Origin: an uncultured Pirellulaceae bacterium | GTDB taxonomy: Bacteria > Planctomycetota > Planctomycetia > Pirellulales > Pirellulaceae | Assembly: GCA_938084685.1 (NCBI GenBank) | Contig: CALKGE010000003.1 | Span: forward strand, 99,898-163,897 | Direction of reading: 5' to 3' | DNA: 64,000 nucleotides | Part shown: one piece after another, positions 6,452 to 24,039 of the stretch | Layout: each line of letters opens with the position of its first letter | Numbering within the stretch: position 1 is the first letter of the stretch | Notes under the pieces: model-generated | Told to the model about the DNA's origin: nothing | Databases searched by the model: none | The model's input: only the letters and a program-made list of their open reading frames with translations | Translations under genes and position numbers: made by a program

Positions 6452-6484
6452 GCAGATCATCAGAGACGATTGCTGATAGGAAAA

Positions 6485-7960: not shown

Positions 7961-8664
7961 GTAGTCAGTGGCGGAGTGGATTGGTGAAACGCTTGCACGA
8001 TTTCATTGGCGAGTGTTTCGCTGTCGTCATGTTGTATCCACCAGCTTTGCATTCTCGCACGGCGGATGACTCCCTTTTCCAGCGGCAGGTTTAACAGGCA
8101 GTGTTCCCAGGTGGTAGTCTGGTCGTCGAGTCGGATGGAAGTGGTCGTGTGGTCGGTGGGATGTACCACTTCGAGATAGGTGAGCGTCGGAGTTAGTTGT
8201 ACCAGCAGGGCATGACTACATTCACCTCCGTCCGTCTTTTTCCACTGTTGCGAGTCACGGAGAGTATATACCGGGAGAGGAGATGCGATGGATGTGGAAG
8301 TTCGAATCGGACAGCGGCAATCGAGTTGATCGGTTTGCAGCGAGACGATTATTTCGATGCCGACAGCATTTTCACGATGGGACGTTCGCCAGTAGAGTTG
8401 AGGCGTGGCATTGCGTTGTTCTGTGGACTGATATTGAACGATCAAGTCGTTTCCTCGCTGGTATGCCTCCTGGATTGATTCTTCGCCAAGACGCATATCA
8501 AGACCCATATCAAGTCCCATATGGAGTTGAACAAAGGAGCTATGAGCCAGGGAATGCTGATACGCGGTAGTATTCAGTAATCCCTTTTGAGGTTGAGTAA
8601 GTTCGAGTTCGCAATGCAGGTTGCTTAGGTCGAGTGAAGCATGAGAGGATTCGATGAGCCACAT
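7957..8664 (-). CDS. Hypothetical protein
   Basis: 235-aa ORF with no recognisable motif. It is convergent with the DUF1501 gene and overlaps its stop by 4 nt. It contains a short MGLDMGLDM repeat. Confidence 0.5.
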   Translation of the reverse strand: MWLIESSHASLDLSNLHCELELTQPQKGLLNTTAYQHSLAHSSFVQLHMGLDMGLDMRLGEESIQEAYQRGNDLIVQYQSTEQRNATPQLYWRTSHRENAVGIEIIVSLQTDQLDCRCPIRTSTSIASPLPVYTLRDSQQWKKTDGGECSHALLVQLTPTLTYLEVVHPTDHTTTSIRLDDQTTTWEHCLLNLPLEKGVIRRARMQSWWIQHDDSETLANEIVQAFHQSTPPLTT

Positions 8665-8844: not shown

Positions 8845-9186
8845 AACAGAGAAGAGGCCACTTGTTAACGCGACTTACCATGGATTTCATAAAGCATGAA
8901 TGGGGAATTCCATAACTGCCAAAGACAGTCTCGCGTAACAAAGGAATCTAATTTGATAATAACAAGTGAGACTCCAATGTCCAGTTTTAAGTTGAAAAAC
9001 TGCAAGAATGTAGGCAGAGAAAATTGTTGGAATCTGTTGCAACCTGGGATTGGTGAGTTAGCGAAGTGCTGTCATAGGTCTGTCAAATTTGATGAGGTAT
9101 ATTGGACATTTGGGTACCAGTTCCCAGTTTGCCATCGACGCAGACATTTTTTTCATGATCGAGGATTTAGAAGTTAAGGTTATTTG

Positions 9187-10002
9187 ATGAAATTGGAAGA
9201 TTTAGCTACGGCGGCAGCCAGAGAGGCTGGTCAATTGTTGGCGAAAATGCAGGATTCCATTAATCCGCGTGAAAAAGCTCCCAAAGATCTGGTGACGGAA
9301 GCAGATGTGGCCTCGCAAAAGCGGATTTTGGAGATCATTTCTGAAAACCGTCCGGACGACTTCTTTTTAGGTGAAGAAGATCTGACTTCTGAAGTGGATT
9401 TGCCAGGATTGGATCAAACCGTTGATTCGACCGTGGATTTGGCTGATTTGGAGTACTGTTGGGTGATTGATCCACTGGACGGAACGGCTAACTATGTGCA
9501 TAAACTGCAGACGTACAGTGTTTCGATTGCGCTGTTGAACTATGGCGAGCCTATTGTGGCTGCCGTATATGATCCCGTCCTGAATGATTGTTACAGTGCC
9601 ACGCGCGGAGAAGGAGCTCGGGTGAACGGACTCCCTATGCAGCACAGTGGCGTGGACGAATTACAACGTTCCCTGATCGCGGCCAGTTTTTCCGCTGGAG
9701 TGGAACGGGGTTCACCGGAAGTAGATCGTTGGGTAGAGATGTTATACGAATGTCAGGCATTACGACGACTGGGATCCGCAGCCTTAAATCTGTGTTATGT
9801 GGCCCAGGGAGGACTGGATGGTTACTGGGCGACGAGTGTCAAAATCTGGGACATTGCCGCGGGAGTTTTGATAGTTAGAGAAGCTGGGGGAACTATAACG
9901 TCTATTGATGGTGGCCCTTTGAAAATTGATGAGGCAAAGTTTATTGCGGCGGCGACTGAAAAGCTGCATAAACAGATGTTTGACGTACTTAACCGAGTCT
10001 AA
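9187..10002 (+). CDS. suhB: Inositol monophosphatase family protein (SuhB-like)
   Basis: The track ORF starts at TTG 9184, with ATG at 9187. IMPase signatures are present: FFLGEED, WVIDPLDGTANYV, and WDIAAG near the C-terminus. Confidence 0.85.
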   Translation: MKLEDLATAAAREAGQLLAKMQDSINPREKAPKDLVTEADVASQKRILEIISENRPDDFFLGEEDLTSEVDLPGLDQTVDSTVDLADLEYCWVIDPLDGTANYVHKLQTYSVSIALLNYGEPIVAAVYDPVLNDCYSATRGEGARVNGLPMQHSGVDELQRSLIAASFSAGVERGSPEVDRWVEMLYECQALRRLGSAALNLCYVAQGGLDGYWATSVKIWDIAAGVLIVREAGGTITSIDGGPLKIDEAKFIAAATEKLHKQMFDVLNRV

Positions 10003-10061
10003 ACTTGGGTCCGATTCAGTTATTTCTCATTGCTAACCCGCTCTTACGATTTAAAATATAG

Positions 10062-10090
10062 AGACCTGCCATGGCGGGTCTTTTCTTTTA
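10062..10090 (+). terminator. Probable intrinsic terminator after the suhB-like gene
   Basis: Hairpin gacctgcc/ggcgggtc (one G-U pair) followed by ttttctttt. Confidence 0.55.
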
Positions 10091-10108
10091 CAATTTTCGG
10101 GTTGGCAA

Positions 10109-13100
10109 ATGCCATATAGGAATCGTCAGATCGATTGTATGCCTCATCCTCACACTGCTTCCGCATCGCCCGCTCTGATTGGCTCATGGCTACGAGTCAC
10201 GCTTTTGTTGACTCTGGTTGGCTCCCTTGCTATGGCTCCGATGGCACGAGCCCAGGTGGAGGTAAGGAACGCGCAGGAAACAGAAGATGGGATCGGAGAA
10301 GTTCGTAAGGCTCCGACTGAGATTGTATTGTTGCGCGACAAAAATGGTAATCTCGTCAAGGTTGCAACGAATCTTTCTCTGGAAGAGTACCTACGGATTT
10401 ATAATCAGCAGAGTGATGTCGAAGATGATAACGCTCCGCCAGCTTTTGTCATTGATCAAGCGGTATATACCGGTCAGGCTTCCGCAACGCACCTCTCTTT
10501 TACGGTCCAGTTCCGGGTTCAGCTGATTCAGGCGGTTCAGGAAGAGTGGGTGAAAGTTCCGCTGCGACTGCCACAGTGTGTTATGCGAGCGGCCCCAAAC
10601 TATACCGGTGACGGTGAGTTTTTTGTAACCTGGGATGCTCAGTTAGGCCATGTTGCCTGGATGCGGGGAGACATTAACAGTCAACATATGATCTCTCTGC
10701 ATCTGACTCGTCCACTGCGACAGGCAGGTCAGGTGACCGAGCTGGTGCTACAACCACCCGTAGCTCGCAGTCAGTTCCGGCAACTAGTTGTTCCCGTCAA
10801 GCAAGCACAAGCAGCGGCGGGCGAATTGGAAGTCCGAGTTTCCAATGTGTCTGGTACGGCGACGTCCTTCGCCTTTGATTTTCAGTCTGACGAGCTTATT
10901 TTTGGCTGGAGTGCTGAGGACGCTGTTTTTTCGCAACCACTCTCCCGAATCCAGGCGTCGGTAGAAACAAGTTTTGCAGTGCATCAAAACCGCAGCATCA
11001 GTGCTCGGGGAGTGTTAACCGTAACGGGTTTAGGAGCAGAGGTAACCGATTTTGAAGTTCTGTTGCCTACGGGCATGACGTTGCTGGACATTCCCAGTCC
11101 CACATTTCGTGCCACTCGATTACCCGCAACCGAGGAACGCATAGAGCAGCAACGCGAGCGGGTTCGGATCAGTATCGTTCGTCCTCAATCAAATGTGACC
11201 ATTCCCCTGGAAGCAGAGTCTAAACCTGAAAATGAAGACAATGCCAACGGCAACCAAACGTTTAACGGATTTGAAGTGGTCGACGCAGTCAAACAGTCGG
11301 GCAGCATTAGTGTGAGTACGACGACCAATTGGGATGTCGTCTGGCAATTGAGCGGCGATATCCGCCGGACTCCTCGGACGTTTGACTCAGCGGCAGGGAG
11401 TCAGGGACTTCAGCAATTTGACTTTGAATACTATAACGTTGCCTACACGGTTGTTGGTGTATTGCAGGAGCGGGAAAATCAGTTTCTGGTGGTCCCTGCC
11501 TACTTGCTGGAAGTTTCCCCCACCCAATTACGCATGACGGCTACGTTAAGGTGCCTTTATTCCGGTTCTGGACAATATCAACTGTCCGGCAATTGGGATG
11601 GTTGGGATTTGGACCAGGTGTTTCAGAGCGTGGAGGGAACGTTACAACTGGTGAATGCAGAGTTAACTGACGGGACACTTGGTTTTCAGATTTCGACGGC
11701 CGATACGGATTCCCGCGGTGAGTTTGAGGTCAGTATACGTGCCAGAAAACAACTTCCGGCAGAGACGGAGGATGACCGCCCTCTGGATTTACTCATTCCC
11801 CGGCTGGATGTTACCAGTACGATGAATGCGAGCATTTTGAAAGGCACACGAACGGTAATTCTGCAGCCTGCAAATAATGTGAAATTAATGCCAGACATGG
11901 AAAACATGGTGGGCTTACTGGCGGGTAGTGTGAATGATGTTTCTGACGAGACCTTGCCGGAGTATCAGCAAACGCCGTTAGTCTTTCATTCTCAGCCCAA
12001 TCTTGACGCTGAAGAAGTATTGCGATTTGTGGGGACGATTGGAACTCGGAAGAGAAGCGTTTTAGTGGCTTCCCGAACGGCTGTCCAACTGGAGGAAAAA
12101 TATGCATCCTTCGAACAGGTACTCGATTACCAGATTGCCTACGAGCCGATTCGTCAGATAACACTAACTGTACCCGGTGTCGTGCGACGCCCGGAAAACC
12201 TGCGTATTTTCCTGCAGCCTGCCGACGCGTCAGGAGAGGATGGAAGTGGGAATGTAATTCTTCCCTGGAGTGTTGTGCCAAGTTCGGCGCAGGTTGATCA
12301 AGAGCGAACGCAATTGGAGATTGAACAGGTAACGGTTGATTTGCTTGCCGAATACAATGGTGCATTGAGAATTGTGTTGAGGTATCAGGAACAGTTGCCG
12401 CTGCTAATGGCGGATACTTCGCAACGGGTGAATTTCCTGCTGGTTTCACCCTCGTCGGAGGAAGTCCGCCTGGTTCAGAACGAGGTCACTCTGAATACTC
12501 AGGATATATTTGTCAGCGAACCGGCGGATGACGTTTGGCAGGTTGTACGTGGAGTGACATCTGAGGATACGGGGGCTGACAGTCTGCGGCTTCGAGCATC
12601 AGAAGGAGTCACAAGCCTTCCAGTAGAGATGCGCATGCGACGAGATATTACGAGGACGTCGACATTGATCCAACGTCGTTGGATACAGACCGCATTGCTT
12701 AACGGTCAATGTCGGGAGCGTATGGCGATGTTTGTCAGAACTAACGAAGCTGATTTGCACGTCAAGTTTCGTGAAGGAACGATCGACCCTGCAACCTTGA
12801 TTGTCGCGGTCAATAATCAACGGGTACCAGTTGATCAGGTAGTGCTTGACTCCCAGGGGCAGTTAACGGTCCGTCTGGCAGCTTCGGGTATCGAGTCGGA
12901 TTACCGGATCGAACTTTGGTATATGCGAGCTGATTTTGATGACAAACGGCTTGATTTGGAATTACCTCAGGTGGTTGATTCCGGCCTGAGTGGTTCTACG
13001 TATTGGCAGTTGGTGACGACCAATGACCAGCATCTATTGGGAAGCCCTCAAGGCTGGACACCAGAGTACGACTGGATCTGGTCCGGACTTTTCTGGTTTA

Positions 13101-13615
13101 GAAGTTCCGTACTTGAACAATCGGATCTGGAGGCCTGGGTGGGCGTTGCGAACCAGTTGAAGCTGCCAGAGAATACCAATCAATACCTGTTGTCAACGGT
13201 TGGAGAAGTGACAACGCTGAATGCCTCGGTTACCAGCCGCTCGACCTTGTTGCTGTTCTTGTCTGGAATGGTGTTGCTGGTGGGGCTGGCTATTTTGAGG
13301 CTCCGTTTTATGCAGCAGCCGATCGTTATTTTTGGAGTAGGACTGGTAGCGGCACTGGTTGCCGTCTGGTTTCCAGAATGGATGTTACTGGTTATTCAGG
13401 CCTCGTTTCTGGGAGGTCTGCTTGTCGTACTGTCACGAATCTTGAACTGGCTTCTGGCCGGTCCGGGCTGGAGTAGTCGCCCAATTCATCGCAGCAGTTT
13501 ACACACAGATACTAACTCGGCAGCGATTTCACTTTTGAAACTTGATTCGTCGATTGCAGCTGCCAACTCACCTCCGATTGTCGATGATTCCGAGCAGCAA
13601 CAGGCATCAACGTGA
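10109..13615 (+). CDS. Giant envelope protein, module 1 (signal peptide, ~1000-aa ectodomain, C-terminal triple-TM cluster); unknown family
   Basis: 1168-aa ORF with signal-like ...LLLTLVGSLAMAPMARA/QVEV. Three hydrophobic helices lie at nt ~13241-13457 (STLLLFLSGMVLLVGLAILRL..IVIFGVGLVAALVAVWF..MLLVIQASFLGGLLVVL). Its stop overlaps the start of the next gene (GTGA). Confidence 0.8.
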   Translation: MPYRNRQIDCMPHPHTASASPALIGSWLRVTLLLTLVGSLAMAPMARAQVEVRNAQETEDGIGEVRKAPTEIVLLRDKNGNLVKVATNLSLEEYLRIYNQQSDVEDDNAPPAFVIDQAVYTGQASATHLSFTVQFRVQLIQAVQEEWVKVPLRLPQCVMRAAPNYTGDGEFFVTWDAQLGHVAWMRGDINSQHMISLHLTRPLRQAGQVTELVLQPPVARSQFRQLVVPVKQAQAAAGELEVRVSNVSGTATSFAFDFQSDELIFGWSAEDAVFSQPLSRIQASVETSFAVHQNRSISARGVLTVTGLGAEVTDFEVLLPTGMTLLDIPSPTFRATRLPATEERIEQQRERVRISIVRPQSNVTIPLEAESKPENEDNANGNQTFNGFEVVDAVKQSGSISVSTTTNWDVVWQLSGDIRRTPRTFDSAAGSQGLQQFDFEYYNVAYTVVGVLQERENQFLVVPAYLLEVSPTQLRMTATLRCLYSGSGQYQLSGNWDGWDLDQVFQSVEGTLQLVNAELTDGTLGFQISTADTDSRGEFEVSIRARKQLPAETEDDRPLDLLIPRLDVTSTMNASILKGTRTVILQPANNVKLMPDMENMVGLLAGSVNDVSDETLPEYQQTPLVFHSQPNLDAEEVLRFVGTIGTRKRSVLVASRTAVQLEEKYASFEQVLDYQIAYEPIRQITLTVPGVVRRPENLRIFLQPADASGEDGSGNVILPWSVVPSSAQVDQERTQLEIEQVTVDLLAEYNGALRIVLRYQEQLPLLMADTSQRVNFLLVSPSSEEVRLVQNEVTLNTQDIFVSEPADDVWQVVRGVTSEDTGADSLRLRASEGVTSLPVEMRMRRDITRTSTLIQRRWIQTALLNGQCRERMAMFVRTNEADLHVKFREGTIDPATLIVAVNNQRVPVDQVVLDSQGQLTVRLAASGIESDYRIELWYMRADFDDKRLDLELPQVVDSGLSGSTYWQLVTTNDQHLLGSPQGWTPEYDWIWSGLFWFRSSVLEQSDLEAWVGVANQLKLPENTNQYLLSTVGEVTTLNASVTSRSTLLLFLSGMVLLVGLAILRLRFMQQPIVIFGVGLVAALVAVWFPEWMLLVIQASFLGGLLVVLSRILNWLLAGPGWSSRPIHRSSLHTDTNSAAISLLKLDSSIAAANSPPIVDDSEQQQAST

Positions 13616-16600
13616 TACGTATTCAGATTCGATTCGTGATTTGCCTTTTTGTGCTTTTGACGAATTGTCATTTTGTGGCCGCACAGCAGTCTGAGAAGAA
13701 GACGACGGACTTGCTGTATCGGCAGATCAAGGTGGAAGAAAAAGATCTTGATGAAATTCTGGCTGGCACCGTACCATTACTGCGATCTCAATTTGAGGAA
13801 ATGCTGAGTGCTGTCAATCGGTCAGGCCGGCAGAACGCGGAGTCTTCCCCCGAGTTTCGTCAGGGGGCGTACATCCGCCAGGCCATGTATTATGGGCGCG
13901 TGCAGGGAGGGCAGATCGTTGATGGTCGAGCGGTTCTGGGGATTGACGCCGACCCCGATCGTGAAGGGCTTGTACCACTGGTTCCTCTGTCTATTGCCAT
14001 TGATTCACCCCAGTGGGCCGCCACGCCGACAGCAGAGAATCAGGCAACGATGGTTTCGGCCACCTGCGGTGTTACCGATCGAAATATCCCACTGGTAAAG
14101 CTTGCCGGCTCGGGAGAACTGATGTTTAACTGGAGTTTGAGTGGAACGACGGTTATCGAGAGCGAAAAGAAATTCAGTTTCGATGTTCCTCAAAGTGAAT
14201 CCAGTTACCTGATTTTTGATTTGCCAACAGATCTGGTGTTGCGCAGCTCCGGTGGGATTGTGTGGAATCCTGTTGATGGTGAGGTGCCGTTGCCTCTTGA
14301 GGGGCTGCCCGAATTGCAGGAGCAGTTTTCGCGTTGGGTTGTCCAGTTGGGAACGCAGTCGAGGACGATGCTGACGGTATTATCCGGGGATACAGTCGGG
14401 ACGAGTACGAGGGTTCTGTTCTATAGTCAGGATCTGCAGTATTCGTTGTCGAGAGAGGGGCTTGAGTTGGTAAGCCAGATCACTCTGGATTCTGTTGGTG
14501 TTCAACGTCAATCTCTGGTCTTTCAACTTACGTCTGATACGGAACTAGTGCGAGTGACCGCCGGGGGAACAGAACTGATCCCCACGCGATTGGATGGAAG
14601 CGAAAATCAATGGTCTGTCACATTGGATGGTACAGCAGGCCAGGTTCTGGTTTCGATTGAAGCGATATCCAGATTCCGTCCACTGCAACCCCAGGTTTTA
14701 CCGTTGATCAAGGTGGTCGATGGGATTTGGAGGCAGGGCCAGGTTTCGTTAGTCATTGCAGATGATTTGGATCTTTACCGTCTGGACGTACAGGGGGCAT
14801 TGGAGAGTCGTATTGAGTCAGCAGCGATGGAGCAACGCCGCATTCTGGAGATGTTCGATCCCTCTCCGCACATCGTCGTCGTGGCCGGCCATCAGGAGGC
14901 GGAGCTGCATGCTAGTCAGGTCTCGAGGTTTGAGATCGAGCCCGGGCGGATCAATCTGCAGACTGAGGTGCGATTGACAGCTGCCACGGAATCGATGCAT
15001 CAGTTACATCTGGAGGTTTTCAAGGGATGGGTGTTAGAGGCAGTTCATCTGGAAAGAGATGTGGCAGGGCCACAACAGTATCTTCCTCGTGTTCTGAAGA
15101 CAGAGCGCACTGGAAGTACGATCTACGAAATTGATTTACAGGAGGGCATCGAACCGGGGCGTCTCATAGCATTAAGGATGAATCTGACTCGGGAAATCAA
15201 AACCAATCAAATTTCGGGTGAGACATTAACGGCAGTGGCGTTTCCGAGCGTGGCGGAGTCAACGCTACAGAAAAAACGAGTGGTACTCCAGCAGCATCTC
15301 GTTGGACTCACAACCAAGCGGCCAAATGTCTTATCCATTTCTGAGTTGGGAGCATCGCAGGTTAATCGTCTTGACCTGGCCACTGATGAAGTAAGTTCTG
15401 AGATGCTACTGAGAGATGTGGAGATTGTGTTTGCGGATGCGAGCTATGTGTCATCATTACAGATTGGGTTGGCACCGGCAACACAGACGTTCGAAGCTCG
15501 GTTGGAAACAGATATTACGGTTTCGGATGTCGTCAATGAAGAGACGAGGATTCAGATTAACCCGCTGGGTACACCAGTAAAGAAAGTGGTGATTTATAGT
15601 TCAGGGTTGAGCGGGACGGATGTGACATGGGAGCTTGCAAAGACAGGTGATTCGACGGTTTCCGTGGGAGCGGTAGCCAGTGTGGAGATGTCAGAAGAGG
15701 ATGGTTGGCAACGGTGGCAGATTGAATTGGTTGATCCTCGGGTCAACCCGTTCGAGTTAAAAGGAGTTCGGACGCTCGACCGTGACACATTCCTGAGGGT
15801 ACCTCTTTATCGCGTGGAAGGGGCTCAGCTGTTTACCGCGTCAGCGGAGATCGGCTGGTCGGAACAGGTGCATGTGGATATAAGCAGGGAACAGTCGATC
15901 GAACGAGTGCTTCCGTCGCGTCTGCGAGGATCGTCGTCGTTTTTCGTGGAGGCCATCGAATATGGAATGCCAGTTGGAACTCCACCTCAGGTGGCTCTGG
16001 TGTCCCGTACAGAACCTTTGGAGCACGTCGTCTGGAATGCTCACGTTCACTCCAAATACCTGATCCATGGGCATAGCAGTCATGAAATCAGATATGTTGT
16101 AGAGCAGCAGGGATTGCACGATTTACTAGTGGATTTACCTCCGCAAGTTGCAGTCGAGAGTGTTTGGGTGGATAACCAGGCAATCCATCTGGCTTCGATA
16201 CGTCGGTCTGATTCGCCACAGCGTTTGCAGATTCCATTGCAAACAGAGACTCGTTTTGCAAAAGTTCGAATTCGATTTACTACCAGTTCCGCCTCGTTAG
16301 GGTTTCGGACAGAGTTGCAAAAACCTCTTCCTGAAGTAAATGCCAGAGTGTTGCAATCGTACTGGTCGGTAGCTGTTCCACCAGGTTATGAATTAGCCCG
16401 GCAGTCGAAGGAGAATTCGGTTGCCGTGAGGTTGTTTGGCCCCTGGTTGAGAAAGGTACGTTCAGGACAGGGAGGAGAAACGGGTTGGCGCCGGTCAGCA
16501 GGTGAGGACTCTGACGGACAGTTATCCAAATTAAACTCTTTGCTGGAACGTGCTGCTTTGATCAGACCAAATGCCGACGAGGTGGTGGAGGTGACCTGGT

Positions 16601-19600
16601 CGGACTGGCTGCGTAACGTTCAGATGCTGTTAAATGAAGAATGGAAGGGCTACACATTAGCCGTTGACGTTGTCGCTCTGAATGCTCTGGGAATCAATCC
16701 CGCGACTCCGCTTGATACAGTGCAAGAGGTGTCACACAGAACATCGGTTATGCAGTGGTTGGAGAAGTCGGAACTGGCGTTTGTCAGGGATGGCCAGCGG
16801 ATTATTCTGTCATCCGATCGCTGGATTGACGAAGATCTGTTGAGCCAGGGACGGTTCATTGAAATTGATTCAGAAATTCGACCTGTGTTTACCACGTATG
16901 AACTGGCAGGTGGGTCGGTCATCAGGTTGGAGGATTGGATTCTTGGCCGCCGGGTACTCTCACTACTTTCCGAACAGGAAGTCAGGCAGCTCCACGAGAC
17001 GCTCCGGCAGGATCTTATGTGGACGTATGAGTCTGGAGTGAAGCAGGCAGGAACCGGGATTTCCCTGGTTGTGTACAACAATGCTTCTCTGGTGACAGCG
17101 TCCTGGGCGAGTTTATTCGTTTGGTTTGGTCTGTTTCTCTGGTTCAGTCGGAAAAAATGGGAGTGGGCATTTATCATCCCTTCTCTGACGGCGACGGTAG
17201 CCATGTTCATCGGGGATGTCTTTGTGGGGTTTGGAGCTCAGGCATTTATTGCGTCACTGGCTGTCGCCGTTTGCACCATTGTGACGCGGCTGCAGGTTGG
17301 TGTGCGGGAGCCCCGAGTGAACTCTGAACTGGACTTTGAATTGCAGTCCCGTCCCGGTATGGTTGCGCCGCTTCTGGTCTTGGCAGTTGCTTTAGGAAGC
17401 ACTCATCTGGCTTCCGCATTTCAACCACCTCCGGTGACGCCCGATACGGCAAGGGATGCAGCGGCCGTGCCTGCTAAGTCACCAGTTGTCGTGCCCTCTG
17501 TTCACAACGTGTACTTCCCTGTTGACAGTGAGGGGAAGGACGCGGGGGAGTACCTGTATGTCGCAGATGAGTTTTATCAGAAACTGCGGAAGTGGTATTC
17601 ACGCGTTGGTAGCCAGACAGAGAGTTGGCTGATCACCGAAGCTCAGTACCAGGTGAATTGGTTGAATGACGAACAGGATTCTGGAGAGGTGACTCCCGTG
17701 ATGAATGTCTCGTATCACATGGAGTTGAGTGAAGGGGAGCAGCAAATCACGCTTCCGCTGGATGCTCGGCAATCTGAAATTCAGGAAGTCGTAGTCGAAG
17801 GAGAGCCGGTTGAATTTCAATGGCTGGCAGATCGTCAGGCCGTCCAAATACCTGTGAGCCAGGAAGGAAATGTGACGGTTGAACTGGAATTGATTCCGGT
17901 TGTTCAGTCGTTAAACAATGTTCATCGTTTCGAAATTGACATCCCCGGTGTGCCAGAATCGACGTTGGAGACATCGCCGATTTCAGATGAGCATCAGGTA
18001 CTGCTGACTGGTTCGTTAGGGCGTATTCATAACGACACTCTTGGTGGTCGAATTGTGGCAGCCTTAGGCAGTACGCGGCGTCTGGGAGTGCTTTGGGGGG
18101 TAGGCGATGTTGAAATAGCAGGTTCGTCTGTGCTGGAGTCTGAAGAGTATTACTGGTTACGTATCGCCCCGCACGCGGTTGTCATGGATGTTCGCATGAA
18201 AATTGATGTGATTGCAGGAACAACGCAACAGTTCAGTATGAATGTGGATCCTCGTCTCAGGCTCTTACCCATCCGCCCAGGACAGCTCGTGGTCGGAGCT
18301 CCTCGCATCCGAGATGGTGATACCAAAACGTTGTACTTTTCGTTGCAGCGTCCCGTCTCTGATTCCTTCGAAGTGCAATTATCATTTTATCTGGAAGATG
18401 TTTCCGGTATCGGAAATGTTCCCATTCCTGAAGTGACTCCTGTAGTTCAGCGTCGTCGGGCGCGTTGGTTGGCATTGAGTGTGGAAGACGACTTAACCTG
18501 GCGCAGTTCCCTGGAGTCTGTGAGCGACGCGTTGCAGGCTGAAGTTCTGGCTCAATGGGGAAATCAGGAATCGCCTCAGGCTGTGTACGCACTAGTGGAT
18601 GGTCAGGGGGAGATGAGTGAGCCGATTACTACATTGCCAAGAGTGGTGAAGACCGAAGTGGTTCAGTCCTGTGACGTGATCGTGAACCCTGACGAGCTTC
18701 TGATGTTGTATCACGCTGAATTGTTGCTTGAAGACGGAGTTGCCTTTCAGCAGCGTTTTCAGGTTCCCAGTGAATTTGTTGTTGAGTCGGCAACGTTACA
18801 TCAGGAGGGAGTGGTTCTGGAAGCGAAGGTACAGCATTCCAATGATGGATATCTAAGCGTGTTCACCGATGCTGGGATATCAGGAGAACTGGTATTTGAG
18901 CTACGAGGAAAACTGCCAGTCCGACGCAGGACCCTGCCCATACCAACGATTACTCACGAACAAGGAATTGTCATGGATGATCAGATCAGGATCATCCAAC
19001 GTTCAGGGACGTTGGTTCAGGTAGTCCGTGACAATGAGTTGACTCAGGAAGCCGGAGATTATCTGGAGAACGTCGATGGTCGTTTGGTAGCTGAATTTGA
19101 CTCGTCACGTGAGGCTGGCGACAGCAGTCTGTCAGTACTTCGCATTAACACAGTAGTACGTGGAGCAGCCAGCGGCGGATTGGCAGAACTTGACGGTAAT
19201 CGGATGTTTGAGATTCGAGGTGAGCTTCAGGTGGTTGAAGGCCAGGTGGACCAGCTTCAATTAAAGCTTCAGAATGTCCTGTTTGACAGCATTGAAGAAT
19301 CGACGGGGGGATTCACTTTGGAGTCAAGGCAGATCGCTCCGAAAAGTTATCTAGTCACCCTGCGGCCTGATCAGCTTATTTCCGATACCCTTCAATTTCA
19401 TTTGAAATTGGAATTGCAGGAGACAGATGGAATTCTGGAGTTGCCCAGATTTGAAGTGGTTAACAATCTGGCGGGTAATGTTCAGCAATTCTTTTATGCT
19501 CCGAACTTGATCGATCAGCAAAAGATGCAGTGGGAAGCGGTGGGGGCGCAGCGTATTACGACGTGGTCCCACGCTCTGGTTCCGGAGCAGGTGACGACAG

Positions 19601-20703
19601 AGACTCACACGGTATTTTTGGGAACCGGGGAAACAGAGATTCGTTCGACTGCATTTATCCAGCGTGCCTCCCGGTTGCAAGTGCAGGTAGCCAGTTACGA
19701 ATTGGCGGTGATAGACCGTCAACACCTGGTGGGAGTAGCCAGATTCTATGTGCTTCCTTCGCGTGGTCAGGATTTAACCTTGCTTTGGCCCGAGCTGTGG
19801 AAATTGGAAACGGTAACCATTCAGGGAACTGCGGTGGTGCCTGAAGTCGATTCCATTCATGCATCTGCAGGTGAACAACGTTCGGGTGTGGTGATACCAC
19901 TTCTTTCGGACCGTCAGTACCAGCAAGTTGATGTCGTCTTTTCGCTGGAGGATGAATCGGTCCTGGCTGGCGGGCAAAATCTGATTTTACTACCTGTCCC
20001 GGAAAACGAAGTTGTCACGTCAACGATTGAGATTTTGGCTTCCAACGCAGATTATAAACTCCTGCGATTTGACAGTGATAATCTGGACACAGGGTCGTTG
20101 TCCGCAGTCTTTGCCAATGAAGTTGACTGGGGCATGGAGGTGGTGAGTAACCAATTGACCGGGAACTTTGAGGTGAATGAAAGTCTGTTGGCAGAACAGG
20201 AATACTGGCAGAAATACAGAGACAGGCTGCAGTTGCTGGACGACTTCGAAGACAGTGAACGAGGCGAAGTGGAGCTCACCGATTTGCCAGATACTGGTTT
20301 TGGTTACCGTGACTATCAGTTGTTACAGGCTCCGGGAATCAGGTTGGCTGCGATGACAGATGGAGCGTTACCGCAGGTTTTGATTCATACGCAGCTGCAC
20401 TCGTCTTCGGTACTCATCTGGTGGCAGCTCGGAGTGATATTGGGAGTTTTGGCGATTTCTGTGTTGGTTTACTTTTTGACAGTTCGAGGCTGGTTTACGG
20501 ATTGGGTGAGCCATGCTCCGATGAGCCCCGTTGTGTTACTGGGTGTCATTTGGTGGACTTTCTTTACACCTTCGTTCATTGGAATAGCTCTGGTTCTGGT
20601 GGCACTTTTGAGATTGTTTGTTTCCGATGGTCGCTTCATCAAAGTCCGGTTTCACTGGGTACGGGAAGCCCGCACGACGGTTACCAGAAGAAGCCAGGTT
20701 TGA
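13612..20703 (+). CDS. Giant envelope protein, modules 2+3 fused (two copies of the same signal/ectodomain/triple-TM architecture); unknown family
   Basis: 2363-aa ORF with a GTG start at 13612 that overlaps the upstream TGA. The N-terminal signal is MIRIQIRFVICLFVLLTNCHFVAA/QQ. An internal TM cluster lies at nt ~17100-17290, followed by a second signal-like segment (M1250, nt 17359: MVAPLLVLAVALGSTHLASA). A terminal TM cluster lies at nt ~20400-20640. Confidence 0.8.
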   Translation: MIRIQIRFVICLFVLLTNCHFVAAQQSEKKTTDLLYRQIKVEEKDLDEILAGTVPLLRSQFEEMLSAVNRSGRQNAESSPEFRQGAYIRQAMYYGRVQGGQIVDGRAVLGIDADPDREGLVPLVPLSIAIDSPQWAATPTAENQATMVSATCGVTDRNIPLVKLAGSGELMFNWSLSGTTVIESEKKFSFDVPQSESSYLIFDLPTDLVLRSSGGIVWNPVDGEVPLPLEGLPELQEQFSRWVVQLGTQSRTMLTVLSGDTVGTSTRVLFYSQDLQYSLSREGLELVSQITLDSVGVQRQSLVFQLTSDTELVRVTAGGTELIPTRLDGSENQWSVTLDGTAGQVLVSIEAISRFRPLQPQVLPLIKVVDGIWRQGQVSLVIADDLDLYRLDVQGALESRIESAAMEQRRILEMFDPSPHIVVVAGHQEAELHASQVSRFEIEPGRINLQTEVRLTAATESMHQLHLEVFKGWVLEAVHLERDVAGPQQYLPRVLKTERTGSTIYEIDLQEGIEPGRLIALRMNLTREIKTNQISGETLTAVAFPSVAESTLQKKRVVLQQHLVGLTTKRPNVLSISELGASQVNRLDLATDEVSSEMLLRDVEIVFADASYVSSLQIGLAPATQTFEARLETDITVSDVVNEETRIQINPLGTPVKKVVIYSSGLSGTDVTWELAKTGDSTVSVGAVASVEMSEEDGWQRWQIELVDPRVNPFELKGVRTLDRDTFLRVPLYRVEGAQLFTASAEIGWSEQVHVDISREQSIERVLPSRLRGSSSFFVEAIEYGMPVGTPPQVALVSRTEPLEHVVWNAHVHSKYLIHGHSSHEIRYVVEQQGLHDLLVDLPPQVAVESVWVDNQAIHLASIRRSDSPQRLQIPLQTETRFAKVRIRFTTSSASLGFRTELQKPLPEVNARVLQSYWSVAVPPGYELARQSKENSVAVRLFGPWLRKVRSGQGGETGWRRSAGEDSDGQLSKLNSLLERAALIRPNADEVVEVTWSDWLRNVQMLLNEEWKGYTLAVDVVALNALGINPATPLDTVQEVSHRTSVMQWLEKSELAFVRDGQRIILSSDRWIDEDLLSQGRFIEIDSEIRPVFTTYELAGGSVIRLEDWILGRRVLSLLSEQEVRQLHETLRQDLMWTYESGVKQAGTGISLVVYNNASLVTASWASLFVWFGLFLWFSRKKWEWAFIIPSLTATVAMFIGDVFVGFGAQAFIASLAVAVCTIVTRLQVGVREPRVNSELDFELQSRPGMVAPLLVLAVALGSTHLASAFQPPPVTPDTARDAAAVPAKSPVVVPSVHNVYFPVDSEGKDAGEYLYVADEFYQKLRKWYSRVGSQTESWLITEAQYQVNWLNDEQDSGEVTPVMNVSYHMELSEGEQQITLPLDARQSEIQEVVVEGEPVEFQWLADRQAVQIPVSQEGNVTVELELIPVVQSLNNVHRFEIDIPGVPESTLETSPISDEHQVLLTGSLGRIHNDTLGGRIVAALGSTRRLGVLWGVGDVEIAGSSVLESEEYYWLRIAPHAVVMDVRMKIDVIAGTTQQFSMNVDPRLRLLPIRPGQLVVGAPRIRDGDTKTLYFSLQRPVSDSFEVQLSFYLEDVSGIGNVPIPEVTPVVQRRRARWLALSVEDDLTWRSSLESVSDALQAEVLAQWGNQESPQAVYALVDGQGEMSEPITTLPRVVKTEVVQSCDVIVNPDELLMLYHAELLLEDGVAFQQRFQVPSEFVVESATLHQEGVVLEAKVQHSNDGYLSVFTDAGISGELVFELRGKLPVRRRTLPIPTITHEQGIVMDDQIRIIQRSGTLVQVVRDNELTQEAGDYLENVDGRLVAEFDSSREAGDSSLSVLRINTVVRGAASGGLAELDGNRMFEIRGELQVVEGQVDQLQLKLQNVLFDSIEESTGGFTLESRQIAPKSYLVTLRPDQLISDTLQFHLKLELQETDGILELPRFEVVNNLAGNVQQFFYAPNLIDQQKMQWEAVGAQRITTWSHALVPEQVTTETHTVFLGTGETEIRSTAFIQRASRLQVQVASYELAVIDRQHLVGVARFYVLPSRGQDLTLLWPELWKLETVTIQGTAVVPEVDSIHASAGEQRSGVVIPLLSDRQYQQVDVVFSLEDESVLAGGQNLILLPVPENEVVTSTIEILASNADYKLLRFDSDNLDTGSLSAVFANEVDWGMEVVSNQLTGNFEVNESLLAEQEYWQKYRDRLQLLDDFEDSERGEVELTDLPDTGFGYRDYQLLQAPGIRLAAMTDGALPQVLIHTQLHSSSVLIWWQLGVILGVLAISVLVYFLTVRGWFTDWVSHAPMSPVVLLGVIWWTFFTPSFIGIALVLVALLRLFVSDGRFIKVRFHWVREARTTVTRRSQV

Positions 20704-20851
20704 AAAAGTTCGTCTTGGCAAAAAACCACGGATGTGATAATTTTCTTACACTTGAAAAAGTAGTTTGTATTGCTGAGGTGCCAAGGAAGGCCAACTCGCA
20801 TTACGAACTTGAAGAGTGCAGTATTAATGCCGGCAGTGGAAGGAGTCCAAA

Positions 20852-21367
20852 ATGGCGGCAGAGCCAGTGCAGACAACAGGGATTCATATTAGATGGATGA
20901 TTCGTCGGGACATGTCAGATGTATTGGGGATCGAGCACGCCAGCTTCGAATTTCCCTGGACAGAAGATGATTTCGTTCGCTGCTTGAGGAAGCGAAATTG
21001 CATCGGCATGGTGGCAGAGCTTAACGATGAAATTATCGGTTTTATGATTTATGAACTGCATAAAACTCGGCTGCACATTCTTAATTTTGCTGTTCATCAG
21101 GAGCATCGACGCTCGGGAGTCGGCACAGCGATGGTGGAAAAACTCAAAAGCAAACTTTCCAGTCAACGACGTAACCGGATTGTGCTCGAAGTTCGTGAAA
21201 CCAACCTGGACGCTCAGCTCTTTTTTAAGAACCAGGGTTTCTTGGCTTTGTCGGTTTTGAAAAACTTCTACGAGGATACCGTGGAAGATGCTTATTTGAT
21301 GCAGCATCGATTTGTTGACGACCAGATGGAACAATCGGTCAATCGGATCACCCGAATGGCCGGCTAG
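20852..21367 (+). CDS. rimI: GNAT N-acetyltransferase, ribosomal-protein-alanine acetyltransferase (RimI)-like
   Basis: 171-aa ORF with LGIEHASFEFPWTEDDF and the acetyl-CoA motif HQEHRRSGVGTAMVEKL. The start may instead be M16 (nt 20897). Confidence 0.8.
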   Translation: MAAEPVQTTGIHIRWMIRRDMSDVLGIEHASFEFPWTEDDFVRCLRKRNCIGMVAELNDEIIGFMIYELHKTRLHILNFAVHQEHRRSGVGTAMVEKLKSKLSSQRRNRIVLEVRETNLDAQLFFKNQGFLALSVLKNFYEDTVEDAYLMQHRFVDDQMEQSVNRITRMAG

Positions 21368-21389
21368 GCAGTTCAGTCCGTCAGCATTT

Positions 21390-21878
21390 TCATATTTCGA
21401 TGTGCCATGCTTTAGGCGGATTGGATTTCAGATCCAGAATGGCAATGGTGTGCTTTGCCGCTCGGTATAGTGCCCCTGGATTTAGGACGATGGTTTCTTC
21501 ATCGTGATGGATTTCACTTCGATGCGTATGGCCGTAGCAGACAATGTCATACAGTCCGCTGGAAATAGCGTTTTCGAGTGACCTGGAAATGTGGCTGTGT
21601 AACAAGGCGATTCGAAATTCGCCGAAAGTGATATCTCCAAATTGGTGATGATAGATTCCACCCGCCTGAATAATTGCTGATTCGAGTTGGTCGTGTTGCG
21701 AGTCGACGTTTCCGCAGACGTAGTGCGTTGGCCAATTTGCCAGTAGTGGAGGGATATCTGGTGAGCCAATATCACCACAGTGCAAAACAGCCATCGGATC
21801 GAAGGCCTCGATTACTCTGACGGCTTTTTGAGTGTGGAAACAATGGCCATGCGTGTCTGAGATCACGGCAAGAATCAT
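21390..21878 (-). CDS. YfcE/MJ0936-type metallophosphoesterase
   Basis: 162-aa ORF with the calcineurin-like motif series: ISDTHG, HCGDI, GNVD, GHTH. Confidence 0.8.
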   Translation of the reverse strand: MILAVISDTHGHCFHTQKAVRVIEAFDPMAVLHCGDIGSPDIPPLLANWPTHYVCGNVDSQHDQLESAIIQAGGIYHHQFGDITFGEFRIALLHSHISRSLENAISSGLYDIVCYGHTHRSEIHHDEETIVLNPGALYRAAKHTIAILDLKSNPPKAWHIEI

Positions 21879-21953
21879 AGGACAAAGTTATAATCAGGGT
21901 GATGTAGTTACAGTTATTCGCTTCGGATTGACGCTCGTACGTCATTATAAGGA

Positions 21954-22724
21954 ATGAATGTGGAAGGACACGAAGGACTTCTGGTTGATATTGTGCTGGG
22001 GCTGGCGATTGCTTCTCCCCTATGGTTGGCTATTGGATTCGCAATGCGTTCGCCTTTGAACTTTCTGCAGGTGGTTTTGTGGGTTCCTGCGGCGATGCTG
22101 ACCGCTTTTTTTTGGCGATCCCGCGTCTATGGAAGGATCCCCGCGGATGTAGCTGGTGCAGTACTGATCAGTAACCACTGTAGTAGCGTTGATCCCTTCT
22201 TTATACAGATGGCCTCAGACCGTCCTATTGGCTGGATGGTTGCGCGGGAGTTCACCTCAGGTCCTGTAATTGGGCGTATTTTGGACATTTTCGATGTGAT
22301 CAAAGCAGGCCGTCGGGGTATCGATACGGCAGCAACCAAACGGGTTATTCGCGAAGCAAGGTCCGGGCGTTTGATATGCATGTTTCCAGAAGGTCGAATA
22401 AATACCACGGACCAGTTTATGCTGTCTTGTCGCCCTGGTGCCGTGATGGTCGCCATTCGAGCGGGCGTTCCGGTTATTCCCTGCTATCTTCATAACGTGG
22501 CTTTTACAGATGAGGTCATTCACCCGTTTCATACTCCAGCCCGAGTTTCGCTATATGTTGGTGAACCTATTGATGTCGTCACGTTGTCGGAAGGTAAAAC
22601 TGACAAAGCAACATTGCAGCGAATTACCAGACTCTGCATTGCAGAGATTGGTAAGTTGGCAGGGCTGGAAAACTGGGAACCAGAATTAGCGGGTAGAAAC
22701 TGGATGGAGTCCTCTGACAGTTAA
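21954..22724 (+). CDS. Lysophospholipid (1-acyl-glycerol-3-phosphate-type) acyltransferase family membrane protein
   Basis: 256-aa ORF with N-terminal hydrophobic helices, an HX4D motif (NHCSSVDP) and an FPEGR motif. Confidence 0.7.
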   Translation: MNVEGHEGLLVDIVLGLAIASPLWLAIGFAMRSPLNFLQVVLWVPAAMLTAFFWRSRVYGRIPADVAGAVLISNHCSSVDPFFIQMASDRPIGWMVAREFTSGPVIGRILDIFDVIKAGRRGIDTAATKRVIREARSGRLICMFPEGRINTTDQFMLSCRPGAVMVAIRAGVPVIPCYLHNVAFTDEVIHPFHTPARVSLYVGEPIDVVTLSEGKTDKATLQRITRLCIAEIGKLAGLENWEPELAGRNWMESSDS

Positions 22725-23842
22725 GCAGTGGTTGAGTCCTGGATCTGTTCGGCCACGTTTTCTAATGTTTGCTGCATGGATATGGCGTTCGTGTTCTTTC
22801 CAGCGATGGTAAGGATAGGGTGTCCCGCGGTGATCGTATCAGTTGCCGAGGGGATATCTGCGAGTCGGAGGTTACTTGCGAGTGCTATTTGCGCGACATG
22901 CTCCAACCAGACTTTCGAGACATCCCAGGCTCGCCTGGCATAGATAATTCGCTTGCCTGCCACCAGGTTGGCCGCAGTCTTTAAGGGGTGAACATGAGGA
23001 TCCTGGAAAGCCGCAATGTGATAATGCATCAGAGGGTGTTTCCAGCAGCTTTCAAATAGCTCCATGGTTGCTGTGTATCTGGGATTAACTTCGAGAAACA
23101 CCAGGTGGTCGTCCGGTGTCAATATGAAGTCGACACCAATCAAGCCCGTCAGTCCCACGAGTTCCGGGTTGGCGAGCAGGTGGCCAAATCGAATAAGTTC
23201 AGCTTGATGGTGATGGGGAAGGGTTTTAGTAACAGCGCCAAGAAATTGAAAGTTCGGTTCGTTCGAGTTTTCCAGCAATTCCGTTGTACCCAGTAGTGTT
23301 GCGTGGGATGGTTGCAACAGAAAACTCGCACTCATCGGAGTCCCGTCGATGAATTGTTGTAGATAGGAATCTTCGGGACAGCTGGTTGTCGAGTTCATTT
23401 GACGAATATGCTGGCCTGCTGCCGAGTGAAACGGTTTGGCAATCCAGCTTCCGGTTTGGGGAACATCAGTCTCAGCCAACAGGGGATATTCGAATTGGTG
23501 TGTCTGCAGCAACTGGTTCAGTTTTTGAGGAGATCGGATTTCTGAAATTGTCTGTTCTGGTGATGCCAGCAGGCGACTGGATGATCTGATTTCTGCCAGC
23601 ACATCAGGGTAATTTTCCAACGCTCCTGTGATACAAACAGCGTCCGGATGAAGTTGTTTTACGATGCCGGGAATGTCATACGGATAATTGACCAGCTTCG
23701 TGCAATTAGCAACCTTCTGCGTATCGGTATCTGAGAAAAGGTCTACCGCCTCGACCTTATAGCCCGCTAGAGCAGCTGATTCCGAGGCTGCTCGAACGCA
23801 CGCGCCAACGATCATTATTCGAGAGATATCAAGATTCGCCAT
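22721..23842 (-). CDS. ATP-grasp family ligase, possibly a cofactor (H4MPT/methanofuran-type) biosynthesis enzyme
   Basis: The track ORF is 22721..23932. The start is revised to M31 (MANLDISRIMIVGA...), a Rossmann-like beginning. It has ATP-grasp-like blocks (WIAKPFHSAAGQHI, LQQFIDG, GLIGVDFIL, FLEVNPR). It is divergent from fae, about 200 bp away. Confidence 0.6.
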   Translation of the reverse strand: MANLDISRIMIVGACVRAASESAALAGYKVEAVDLFSDTDTQKVANCTKLVNYPYDIPGIVKQLHPDAVCITGALENYPDVLAEIRSSSRLLASPEQTISEIRSPQKLNQLLQTHQFEYPLLAETDVPQTGSWIAKPFHSAAGQHIRQMNSTTSCPEDSYLQQFIDGTPMSASFLLQPSHATLLGTTELLENSNEPNFQFLGAVTKTLPHHHQAELIRFGHLLANPELVGLTGLIGVDFILTPDDHLVFLEVNPRYTATMELFESCWKHPLMHYHIAAFQDPHVHPLKTAANLVAGKRIIYARRAWDVSKVWLEHVAQIALASNLRLADIPSATDTITAGHPILTIAGKNTNAISMQQTLENVAEQIQDSTTA

Positions 23843-24039
23843 GCTGTTTGGTTGTATCAGGTAGCAAGTTACTGTCAAATAAAGTTTGACGATTAAAGCA
23901 CGACTTGTCAGCCAGTTCAGATGAAATTCCATATTGAATTGCTTATTTGATCACGGGTTCTTGTAATTGGTCAACAGTGTGCTATTCTCACATCAAAGAT
24001 TTAGTTTTAGGTTTTCTCAGGAAAAACGGAGATTCATCC

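Follow-up and report, generated by a model that had tools for sequence, protein, structure and literature searches.

A Gene Pair of a Pirellulaceae Bacterium Encoding Three Paralogous Beta-Sandwich Modules With Membrane Anchors

Approximately half of the genes of planctomycetes lack a known function, and we know of no identified molecular component of the planctomycetal envelope parts such as the enlarged periplasm, membrane invaginations, and crateriform contact sites. Two adjacent genes in the window (the whole stretch of 64,000 nt from an uncultured, marine Pirellulaceae bacterium analyzed here) encode very large proteins, P1 and P2, expensive to make at approximately 3500 residues per copy. 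They raise the question of how their parts are related, whether they belong to any named family, and what they could do in the envelope.

Gene pair and membrane layout

P1 (1168 aa) is encoded at 10109–13615 and P2 (2363 aa) at 13612–20703, both on the forward strand, with a GTGA junction between them; the coordinates and the junction are exactly as given in the original prediction. The overlap suggests translational coupling of P1 and P2, and in 14 other loci the junction ranges between an overlap of 4 nt and a gap of 4 nt. The genes around the pair encode inositol monophosphatase, GNAT, metallophosphoesterase, acyltransferase, and an ATP-grasp protein. As a terminator-like hairpin, the top-scoring site of this type within 9900–21000, precedes P1 and separates it from the inositol-monophosphatase gene, P1 and P2 may form a transcription unit of their own. 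The features are as follows.

10060..10083, forward strand: terminator-like hairpin, 10-bp stem, then a T-run (consensus match only)
10109..13615, forward strand: P1 gene, module 1 (ORF call, hydrophobicity, AlphaFold model)
10172..10252, forward strand: P1 signal-peptide-like segment, aa 22–48, ARA then QV (hydrophobicity, model helix)
13226..13462, forward strand: P1 three-helix membrane anchor, aa 1040–1118 (Kyte-Doolittle, alignment, AlphaFold model)
13612..13615, forward strand: GTGA, the P2 start (GTG) sharing the P1 stop (sequence reading)
13612..17346, forward strand: P2 module 2, aa 1–1245 (hydrophobicity, family profiles)
17347..20703, forward strand: P2 module 3, aa 1246–2363 (hydrophobicity, family profiles)
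17356..17421, forward strand: P2 predicted internal signal-anchor or fourth transmembrane (TM) helix, aa 1249–1270, ASA then FQ (hydrophobicity, family conservation)

The three modules have the common layout read originally from the sequence, that is, a signal-like segment, an ectodomain of approximately 1000 aa, and a TM cluster, with Kyte-Doolittle positions matching the nucleotide ranges proposed for them. P1 consists of a signal peptide-like segment (hydrophobic stretch 22–46 by Kyte-Doolittle, helix 26–42 in the AlphaFold model), an N-terminal arm formed by a beta-hairpin and a helix, six or seven beta-sandwich domains, three TM helices (cluster 1040–1118 by Kyte-Doolittle, helices at 1044–1116 in the model) with near-invariant P1089, Q1097, and G1102, and a tail of about 50 aa predicted to be cytoplasmic. 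In P2, module 2 comprises a predicted signal peptide (signal-like stretch at aa 1–26), a beta-rich ectodomain with an extra membrane-near helical insert, and three TM helices (aa 1158–1231). Module 3 comprises the signal-anchor (aa 1249–1270), a beta-rich ectodomain, a C-terminal TM cluster (aa 2264–2343), and a basic tail, again predicted to be cytoplasmic; its TM cluster is seen as two hydrophobic peaks, the second of which, 37 aa long, aligns with TM2–TM3 of P1.

Signal cleavage and topology were assigned by hydrophobicity and charge heuristics. Hydrophobic stretches with AxA-like sites are present and conserved at the P1, P2, and P2-internal signal segments; moreover, segment 1249–1270 is conserved throughout the P2 family together with small residues at –3 and –1. 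This segment may return the chain to the periplasm, and cleavage at its putative signal-peptidase site would yield the predicted neo-N-terminus FQPPPVTPDTAR. The TM architecture is retained in all family members examined (at least 34), as is the internal fourth helix of P2. All three originally predicted three-helix clusters are indeed present, and for the one in the middle of P2 the preferred reading has four helices, the fourth being the internal signal-anchor. As the number of helices between the P2 ectodomains is then even (3 + 1), all three ectodomains are plausibly periplasmic, consistent with the hydrophobicity, the positive-inside pattern, and the conservation of the fourth helix before the second P2 ectodomain.

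Paralogy of the modules and extent of the family

By profile comparison, P1, P2a (P2 1–1245), and P2b (P2 1246–2363) are true paralogs, products of an ancient triplication. The triplication had been predicted originally along with an HHalign profile test, which, when run, gave E from 1.3e-30 to 3.7e-19 with low-scoring controls. BLASTP detects no similarity among the three modules (best E 1.4), a plain HMMER search with the P1 profile does not detect P2, and HHalign with shallow profiles of 8–18 close sequences yields no significant module match (probability 3% or less). With distant homologs added, which for the decisive profiles came via synteny, P1 matches P2a with probability 99.6% (E 1.2e-23) and P2b with 98.4% (E 9.9e-15), and P2a matches P2b with 99.2% (E 3.7e-19); given a 68-sequence P1 profile, the two comparisons involving P1 reach E 1.3e-30 and 2.1e-20. 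These matches are collinear and full-length (approximately 830–1000 columns) at a module-to-module identity of about 14%, and true pairs score 140–285, compared to 15–48 for reversed, block-shuffled, and column-shuffled controls. A short pattern noticed early in each ectodomain, IDQAVYTGQ (P1 115), IRQAMYYGR (P2 88), and ITEAQYQVN (P2 1341), occupies corresponding columns whichever two of the three modules are aligned.

Two distant relatives independently support the module as a probable evolutionary unit. With P0190, one and the same sequence is matched by two profiles, P1 (E 3.5e-27) and P2b (E 1.7e-14), and P0191 has halves that align with each other (E 1e-22). As a single gene carries just one or two modules in P0190 and P0191, the full set of three is not required. 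A further candidate, the “fusion” P0100, was set aside as Rosetta-stone evidence, a similar case, P0132, being clearly a frameshift artefact. The locus provides an example of gene triplication visible only to deep profile comparison; shallow profiles by themselves would have wrongly led to rejection of module paralogy.

The P1 family comprises 2567 clusters at 50% identity, and its named members are all “hypothetical protein” from Pirellulales-type MAGs. A family member is defined by an export signal or signal-anchor, followed by a multi-beta-sandwich ectodomain of approximately 800–1100 aa and a C-terminal cluster of three TM helices, the ectodomain starting with a conserved hairpin-helix-“PPxY…G” element; these features are found in all three window modules and are conserved in family members. 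P1 and P2 are tightly adjacent in all 18 informative contigs (the window and 17 others), in the order of a one-module gene followed by a two-module gene, down to 23–24% identity, and in most of these contigs the junction lies between –4 and +4 nt. Hence distant Planctomycetota have kept both the pairing and the tight junction, in line with the synteny check suggested originally. No further conserved operon partner is seen among approximately 20 related contexts.

Since one distant two-module relative lies in a MAG labelled Dormibacteraeota, strict planctomycete specificity of the family is uncertain. A third word-indexed homolog search, started from a 137-sequence alignment, yielded just two more proteins; a contig scan recovered only close marine relatives, as it was based on short conserved patterns. 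Overall, the analysis defines a large family of envelope proteins, conserved, syntenic, and modular, with no fewer than 2500 clusters at 50% identity.

Fold and search for known relatives

The AlphaFold model of P1 (pLDDT 82.1) has an all-beta ectodomain, divided into six or seven beta-sandwich domains, with three helices toward the C-terminus; at pTM 0.48, the domain arrangement and the reach of the ectodomain are not fixed by the model. The ectodomains, of approximately 1000 aa, are acidic (net charge –44 to –77) and nearly Cys-free, and have a Trp-rich membrane-proximal domain with conserved Trp residues. The original reading had found neither catalytic nor repeat motifs in them: the former part stands, as the motif search of P1 and P2 revealed no CxEQ thioester, Ca-binding, lipobox, HExxH, or GxSxG motifs, while profile comparison demonstrates internally repeated beta-sandwich domains. 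A lone LPDTG and a lone RGD in P1/P2 are regarded as chance occurrences.

Neither Pfam nor NCBIfam nor PDB contains an entry for the family. When the window proteins and diverse relatives were scanned against Pfam, NCBIfam, and PADLOC, nothing rose above noise; with E values up to 1 admitted, Pfam and NCBIfam match neither the window proteins nor 25 diverse relatives, and PDB sequence searches with single sequences and profiles produce no match. Foldseek comparison of low- and high-confidence P1 models with PDB retrieves only generic beta-sandwich strings with TM-scores of 0.32 or less, these being type-I membrane proteins with beta-sandwich legs (integrin alpha, Ost1/ribophorin, PIG-T). No characterized family, BatD included, claims these proteins, in agreement with the earlier statement that none could be assigned. 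The novelty is thus that of the family and its architecture, not of a demonstrated mechanism, and the building blocks, beta-sandwiches and TM helices, are ordinary.

Possible assembly and role

The coupling and the universal adjacency, both circumstantial, make a P1–P2 hetero-oligomer plausible. We infer that the two proteins would most likely be produced in equal amounts (1:1) and assemble into one pseudo-trimeric complex, its three legs held in the cytoplasmic membrane by nine or ten TM helices. In the envelope, this complex would serve as a periplasmic scaffold or binding platform without enzymatic activity. Our confidence in this reading of the conserved two-gene operon is about evenly balanced. 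A structural role is the default reading for beta-sandwich chains free of catalytic motifs, and binding, sensing, or a chaperone-like function would suit them just as well. The pair is a testable candidate for Pirellulales envelope architecture.

Beta-sandwich arrays commonly bind glycans or proteins, and P1 and P2, together or separately, could be periplasmic capture or receptor proteins for macromolecules (polysaccharides taken up) or cell-wall polymers, as the conserved Trp residues near the membrane may also suggest. Planctomycetes take up macromolecules to the periplasm, with the players unidentified (PMC12673574; PMC5394234). Still, we consider this function unlikely, given that no carbohydrate-binding or other Pfam domain is found in any member scanned, that transporters, glycosidases, and sulfatases are linked to the pair in none of the contexts examined, and that strongly acidic surfaces are atypical for binding acidic marine polysaccharides. 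Far less credible, and largely refuted by the profile, context, motif, and Foldseek results, is a known family missed by eye, be it a BatD-type protein, an alpha-2-macroglobulin-like protease trap, or a defense-system component. BatD (PF13584) of the Bacteroides Bat operon, an envelope protein of obscure mechanism, superficially resembles P1 and P2 in having a signal peptide, a beta-rich ectodomain, and a C-terminal TM segment, but each P1/P2 module is two to four times the length of BatD and has three helices. PF13584 has no match at E up to 1 in P1/P2 and none at E up to 0.1–1 among 25 diverse relatives, and MoxR, DUF58, and VWA (BatA/BatB) genes are absent beside the pair in the window and in approximately 20 related contexts. 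MG-domain chains (TEP1, C3/C4, A2ML1) do occur low in the Foldseek list, but with probabilities of 0.28–0.44 and TM-scores below 0.1, and P1/P2 have no CxEQ, no lipobox, and no A2M-family Pfam match; PADLOC is negative.

The structural matches point to two more possibilities. The best target-normalized Foldseek scores belong to Ost1/ribophorin (TMt 0.25–0.32, probability 1.00), with PIG-T also listed, and these proteins similarly have beta-sandwich domains in the lumen, which corresponds topologically to the periplasm, and a membrane anchor at the C-terminus. By this analogy, P1 and P2 could be accessory subunits, themselves non-catalytic, that belong to a membrane enzyme or translocon whose genes lie elsewhere, as Ost1/ribophorin is in oligosaccharyltransferase and PIG-T in GPI transamidase. 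However, the scores are still low, the match spans only about 430–460 of 1168 residues, and Ost1/ribophorin I and PIG-T have a single TM helix. Moreover, there is no Pfam match to ribophorin I and no sequence similarity to ribophorin I or PIG-T. Ribophorin I associates with an STT3-type catalytic subunit, but no glycosyltransferase is linked to the pair, about 20 contexts show no linked catalytic partner of any kind, and three full 1000-aa copies of an accessory domain would be unusual, so that such a function seems improbable. The top Foldseek matches by E-value (3e-8 to 3e-9) are integrins alpha, which share with P1–P2 a long extracytoplasmic string of beta-sandwiches (the thigh, calf-1, and calf-2 legs), a C-terminal anchor, a short cytoplasmic tail (type-I topology), and pairing with a second chain, obligate in integrins and inferred here. 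An integrin-like signaling or anchoring device, passing a periplasmic event from the legs via the helices to a tail-binding cytoplasmic partner, would agree with the presence of cytoplasmic tails in all members and of a short tail motif conserved among close relatives; we nevertheless rate it as very unlikely. TM-scores of 0.09–0.14 at 7–11% identity reflect a generic likeness of beta-sandwich strings, that is, resemblance of domain type and not homology, the tail is poorly conserved over the wider family, and no signaling domain or conserved cytoplasmic partner gene is found. Unlike integrins alpha, P1–P2 have neither a beta-propeller head nor FG-GAP repeats (no FG-GAP Pfam match in P1/P2, the P1 model holding only beta-sandwich domains and three TM helices), and the anchor has three helices, not one.

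A more specific form of the envelope scaffold would make P1–P2 the cytoplasmic-membrane-anchored part of a planctomycete-specific envelope-spanning structure. Cryo-ET has revealed “press stud-like” contacts of the outer and cytoplasmic membranes at crateriform structures, with protein composition still obscure (PMC5394234). In one variant, the complex would belong to such contacts; in the other, it would be a periplasmic spacer, setting which parts of the cytoplasmic membrane stay attached and which are free to invaginate. The periplasm would be crossed by a pillar of pseudo-threefold symmetry, made of the three beta-sandwich legs. The original prediction named the pair a candidate component of a planctomycete-specific envelope structure, and no evidence here supports a particular one; a literature search covering essentiality and the proteins that make up crateriform or other envelope structures found nothing relevant. 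We regard this specific form as very doubtful.

Giant genes have reportedly been treated by Reva and Tummler in 2008. P2 (7.1 kb) passes the 5-kb definition and, similar to planctomycetal giant genes, is predicted to be envelope-associated and has an obscure function. The planctomycetal giant genes, reviewed in PMC12673574, mostly encode lineage-specific, repeat-rich surface or secreted proteins, whereas the P1–P2 locus is conserved, occurs in single copy, keeps its synteny, and, unlike most of them, has a defined three-module architecture.

Gene pair and architecture of its products

Both giant ORFs of the original prediction are present in the window, encoding proteins P1 and P2 and overlapping, as had been described, in GTGA. 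The Kyte–Doolittle scan yields an N-terminal hydrophobic segment (22–46) and a C-terminal cluster (1040–1118) in P1, and an N-terminal segment (1–26), a middle cluster (1158–1231) and a C-terminal cluster (2264–2343) in P2, the clusters agreeing with the predicted nucleotide ranges. An extra segment of P2 at 1249–1270 has ASA at its end, followed by FQ. As P1 is separated from the upstream phosphatase gene by a hairpin, an independent two-gene operon is suggested.

Features of the P1–P2 locus in the window
10060–10083, strong terminator-like hairpin between the inositol monophosphatase gene and P1
10109–13615, + strand, P1, ORF of 1168 aa, ATG start
13612–20703, + strand, P2, ORF of 2363 aa, GTG start

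In each of the 18 contigs open to inspection on both sides, a gene of ~1100–1250 aa has one of ~2200–2940 aa immediately downstream. Most junctions are overlaps of 4 nt or 1 nt, or gaps of at most 4 nt; three distant lineages have gaps of 24, 52 and 79 nt. Hence tight coupling is conserved, and the exact GTGA is not.

The first AlphaFold2 model of P1, for which 18 sequences were used, was mediocre (pLDDT 66.9), while the second one, based on 68 diverse sequences, was good (mean pLDDT 82.1, 597 residues with at least 90, pTM 0.48).

Anatomy of P1 in the AlphaFold2 model
26–42, signal helix
72–101, conserved, poorly packed beta-hairpin and helix (“arm”)
113–1000, six or seven beta-sandwich domains
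membrane-adjoining short helix and beta-hairpin
1044–1064, 1071–1087, 1089–1116, three transmembrane (TM) helices
disordered tail of ~50 residues

Off-diagonal HHalign matches and domain-by-domain comparisons relate the sandwich domains to each other (e.g., D2 and D3b, 93% probability), so the ectodomains, in which no repeats had been noticed originally, are internally repetitive at the profile level. All three ectodomains carry a strongly negative net charge (–44, –44 and –77) and are nearly devoid of Cys, and a motif search of them found no thioester, Ca-binding, lipobox or simple catalytic motifs. Conservation peaks in the Trp-rich membrane-proximal domain and the helices, the nearly invariant positions of P1 including W858, Q860, R871, W966, E986, W989, P1089, Q1097 and G1102.

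Loop charges, read directly from the sequence, are compatible with periplasmic placement of each ectodomain, and the short Arg/Lys-rich loops and tails would be cytoplasmic. In P2, the three middle helices and the internal signal-like helix make four crossings, which would place the second ectodomain again in the periplasm. Across the P2 family this fourth helix is conserved, as are the small residues at –3/–1 ahead of the second ectodomain; signal peptidase cleavage at this internal site, giving three separate chains, is possible.

Common origin of the three modules

BLASTP comparison of the segments gives E = 1.4 at best, and HHalign with profiles of the initially retrieved homologs gives probabilities of at most 3%, the weak top matches being all nearly collinear. 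The profiles were rebuilt with distant members recovered through synteny and overlooked by word-indexed search, that is, the upstream genes of related loci L002, L003 and L005 and the downstream gene of L001. All three comparisons then become collinear and full-length: P1 matches P2(1–1245), or P2a, with probability 99.6% (E 1.2e-23, 997 columns) and P2(1246–2363), or P2b, with 98.4% (E 9.9e-15, 977 columns), while P2a matches P2b with 99.2% (E 3.7e-19, 832 columns). The 68-sequence P1 profile yields E-values of 1.3e-30 and 2.1e-20 with P2a and P2b, respectively. Reversed, 30-column block-shuffled and fully column-shuffled target profiles score 15–48, compared to 140–219 for the real ones, and hence the signal is not explained by composition or hydrophobic periodicity.

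The three pairwise alignments all place the short motif proposed originally in corresponding columns (P1 115, P2 88, P2 1341); inter-module identity is ~14%. Paralogy of the segments, which a lack of significant profile similarity had been named beforehand as refuting, is thus borne out by deep HHalign profiles; shallow ones would have led to its false rejection, and this may serve as a cautionary example. No further P1/P2 paralog was found within the window.

Two distant relatives, P0190 and P0191, have different module numbers and, as single sequences, support the common origin independently. P0190 (L020 35–4609) has one module followed by a long low-complexity or coiled region ahead of the TM cluster, and as a single sequence matches the profiles of both P1 (E 3.5e-27) and P2b (E 1.7e-14). 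P0191 (L018 10001–14761), from a MAG labelled Candidatus Dormibacteraeota, has two shorter tandem modules, one half matching the other with E 1e-22. P0100 (3410 aa, Pirellulales MAG, MFO0870948.1) comprises P1-like and P2-like parts, i.e., three modules, in one ORF. It may reflect a 1-nt assembly error and not a natural fusion, since a similar fusion, P0132 (1742 aa), has obvious out-of-frame junk at the junction.

The triplication is thus real and ancient, and the module is an evolutionary unit tandemly duplicated more than once. The architecture and paralogy are held with high confidence.

Relation to known families and candidate function

P1 and P2 have no match in Pfam or NCBIfam, in agreement with the original failure to assign them to a characterised family, nor do 25 diverse relatives. 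PADLOC and PDB sequence searches, the latter with single sequences and family profiles, also give no match. Foldseek comparison of both P1 models with PDB retrieves solely proteins made of strings of beta-sandwich domains: integrin alpha legs (E down to 3e-9, TM-score ~0.1), Ost1/ribophorin I (TMt 0.25–0.32), PIG-T, ITIH1, ClfA and MG-domain proteins. These matches reflect a general kind of protein, type-I membrane with beta-sandwich legs, and not family identity. A check of P1 and P2 for the hallmarks of BatD, alpha-2-macroglobulins, integrin alpha and ribophorin was negative for each of the four. Membership in a known family is essentially refuted. No curated model (even a DUF), solved structure or paper was found in the databases and literature searched, and P1/P2 are new at the family level.

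The two coupled, universally adjacent genes encode three paralogous modules whose ectodomain is all-beta and whose membrane anchor has three helices; neither an enzymatic signature nor partner genes were found for the pair. P1 and P2 would be exported by Sec, with all ectodomains in the periplasm. Synthesised in equal quantity, they would form a single pseudo-trimeric complex, held in the cytoplasmic membrane by nine or ten helices. Its subunits may touch through the N-terminal arm, which is conserved and unpacked, and the complex may be a non-enzymatic periplasmic scaffold or binding platform. A P1–P2 hetero-complex seems somewhat favoured, the explanation as a whole has about even chances, and a specifically structural role is doubtful. 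Besides membership in a known family, the competing explanations are that the pair serves in periplasmic capture or as a receptor, that it signals in the manner of integrins, with the integrin alpha similarity confined to the general protein kind, and that it provides accessory subunits of an unlinked enzyme.

Cryo-ET of crateriform structures has revealed “press stud-like” contacts that link the outer membrane to the cytoplasmic one, with membrane invagination where these contacts are absent; the proteins are not named (PMC5394234). According to a 2025 review (PMC12673574), the players both in the envelope and in macromolecule uptake are still unknown. No later paper naming components was found in the literature searched, and we consider it very improbable that P1–P2 belong to such structures. 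As Planctomycetes commonly have large hypothetical membrane proteins, specialists would find the pair interesting and not astonishing; the value of P1–P2 is that of a well-defined, widespread and testable candidate.

Distribution and genomic neighbourhood

Word-indexed searches retrieve no more than 18 relatives for P1 and 16 for P2. An exhaustive profile search with P1 yields 2567 representative clusters (50% identity) at E <= 0.001, 1158 of them at E <= 1e-30, nearly all 1050–1250 aa long and matched end to end. As the P1 profile does not detect P2 in plain HMMER, these clusters comprise P1-type proteins together with other relatives of one module. All source entries retrieved are named “hypothetical protein”, and the source MAGs are Pirellulaceae, Pirellulales, “Planctomycetaceae”, Rhodopirellula and Thermoguttaceae. 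P0190 is neighboured by bacterial-microcompartment genes, clustered on the opposite strand.

No long-range conserved neighbour other than the pair itself was found in the contexts compared. Pirellulaceae-like genomes have a stable order of inositol monophosphatase, P1, P2, GNAT, metallophosphoesterase, acyltransferase and ATP-grasp, the same in the window (9184–23932) and in locus L005 (5584–21272) despite P2 identity of only 23%, which is unusually stable for such divergence.

The window is planctomycetal, and the neighbours of the pair include PSCyt1/PSCyt2/PSD1 and DUF1501 proteins and a methylene-H4MPT dehydrogenase-like gene. A PSCyt1/PSCyt2/PSD1 (DUF1549/DUF1553) protein at 3332–6451 is followed by a DUF1501 protein at 6470–7960; this well-known planctomycete gene pair, of no known function, is also upstream in related loci L006–L017. 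ATP-grasp_3 (22721–23932, – strand) and Mpt_N (methylene-tetrahydromethanopterin dehydrogenase N-terminal; 24751–25626, + strand) proteins are encoded by genes of H4MPT-linked C1 metabolism, typical of Planctomycetes. No Pfam family matches the proteins encoded at 25649–26983 (+ strand, 444 aa) and 7957–8664 (– strand, 235 aa) with E up to 0.01, and a long ORF at 49399–52305 (+ strand, 968 aa, TTG start) is unrelated to the P1/P2 family by hmmsearch. Nearly all 2-kb bins of 1–64000 have positive GC skew, and cumulative skew climbs steadily; the window as a whole is probably part of one replichore, with the + strand carrying most genes.
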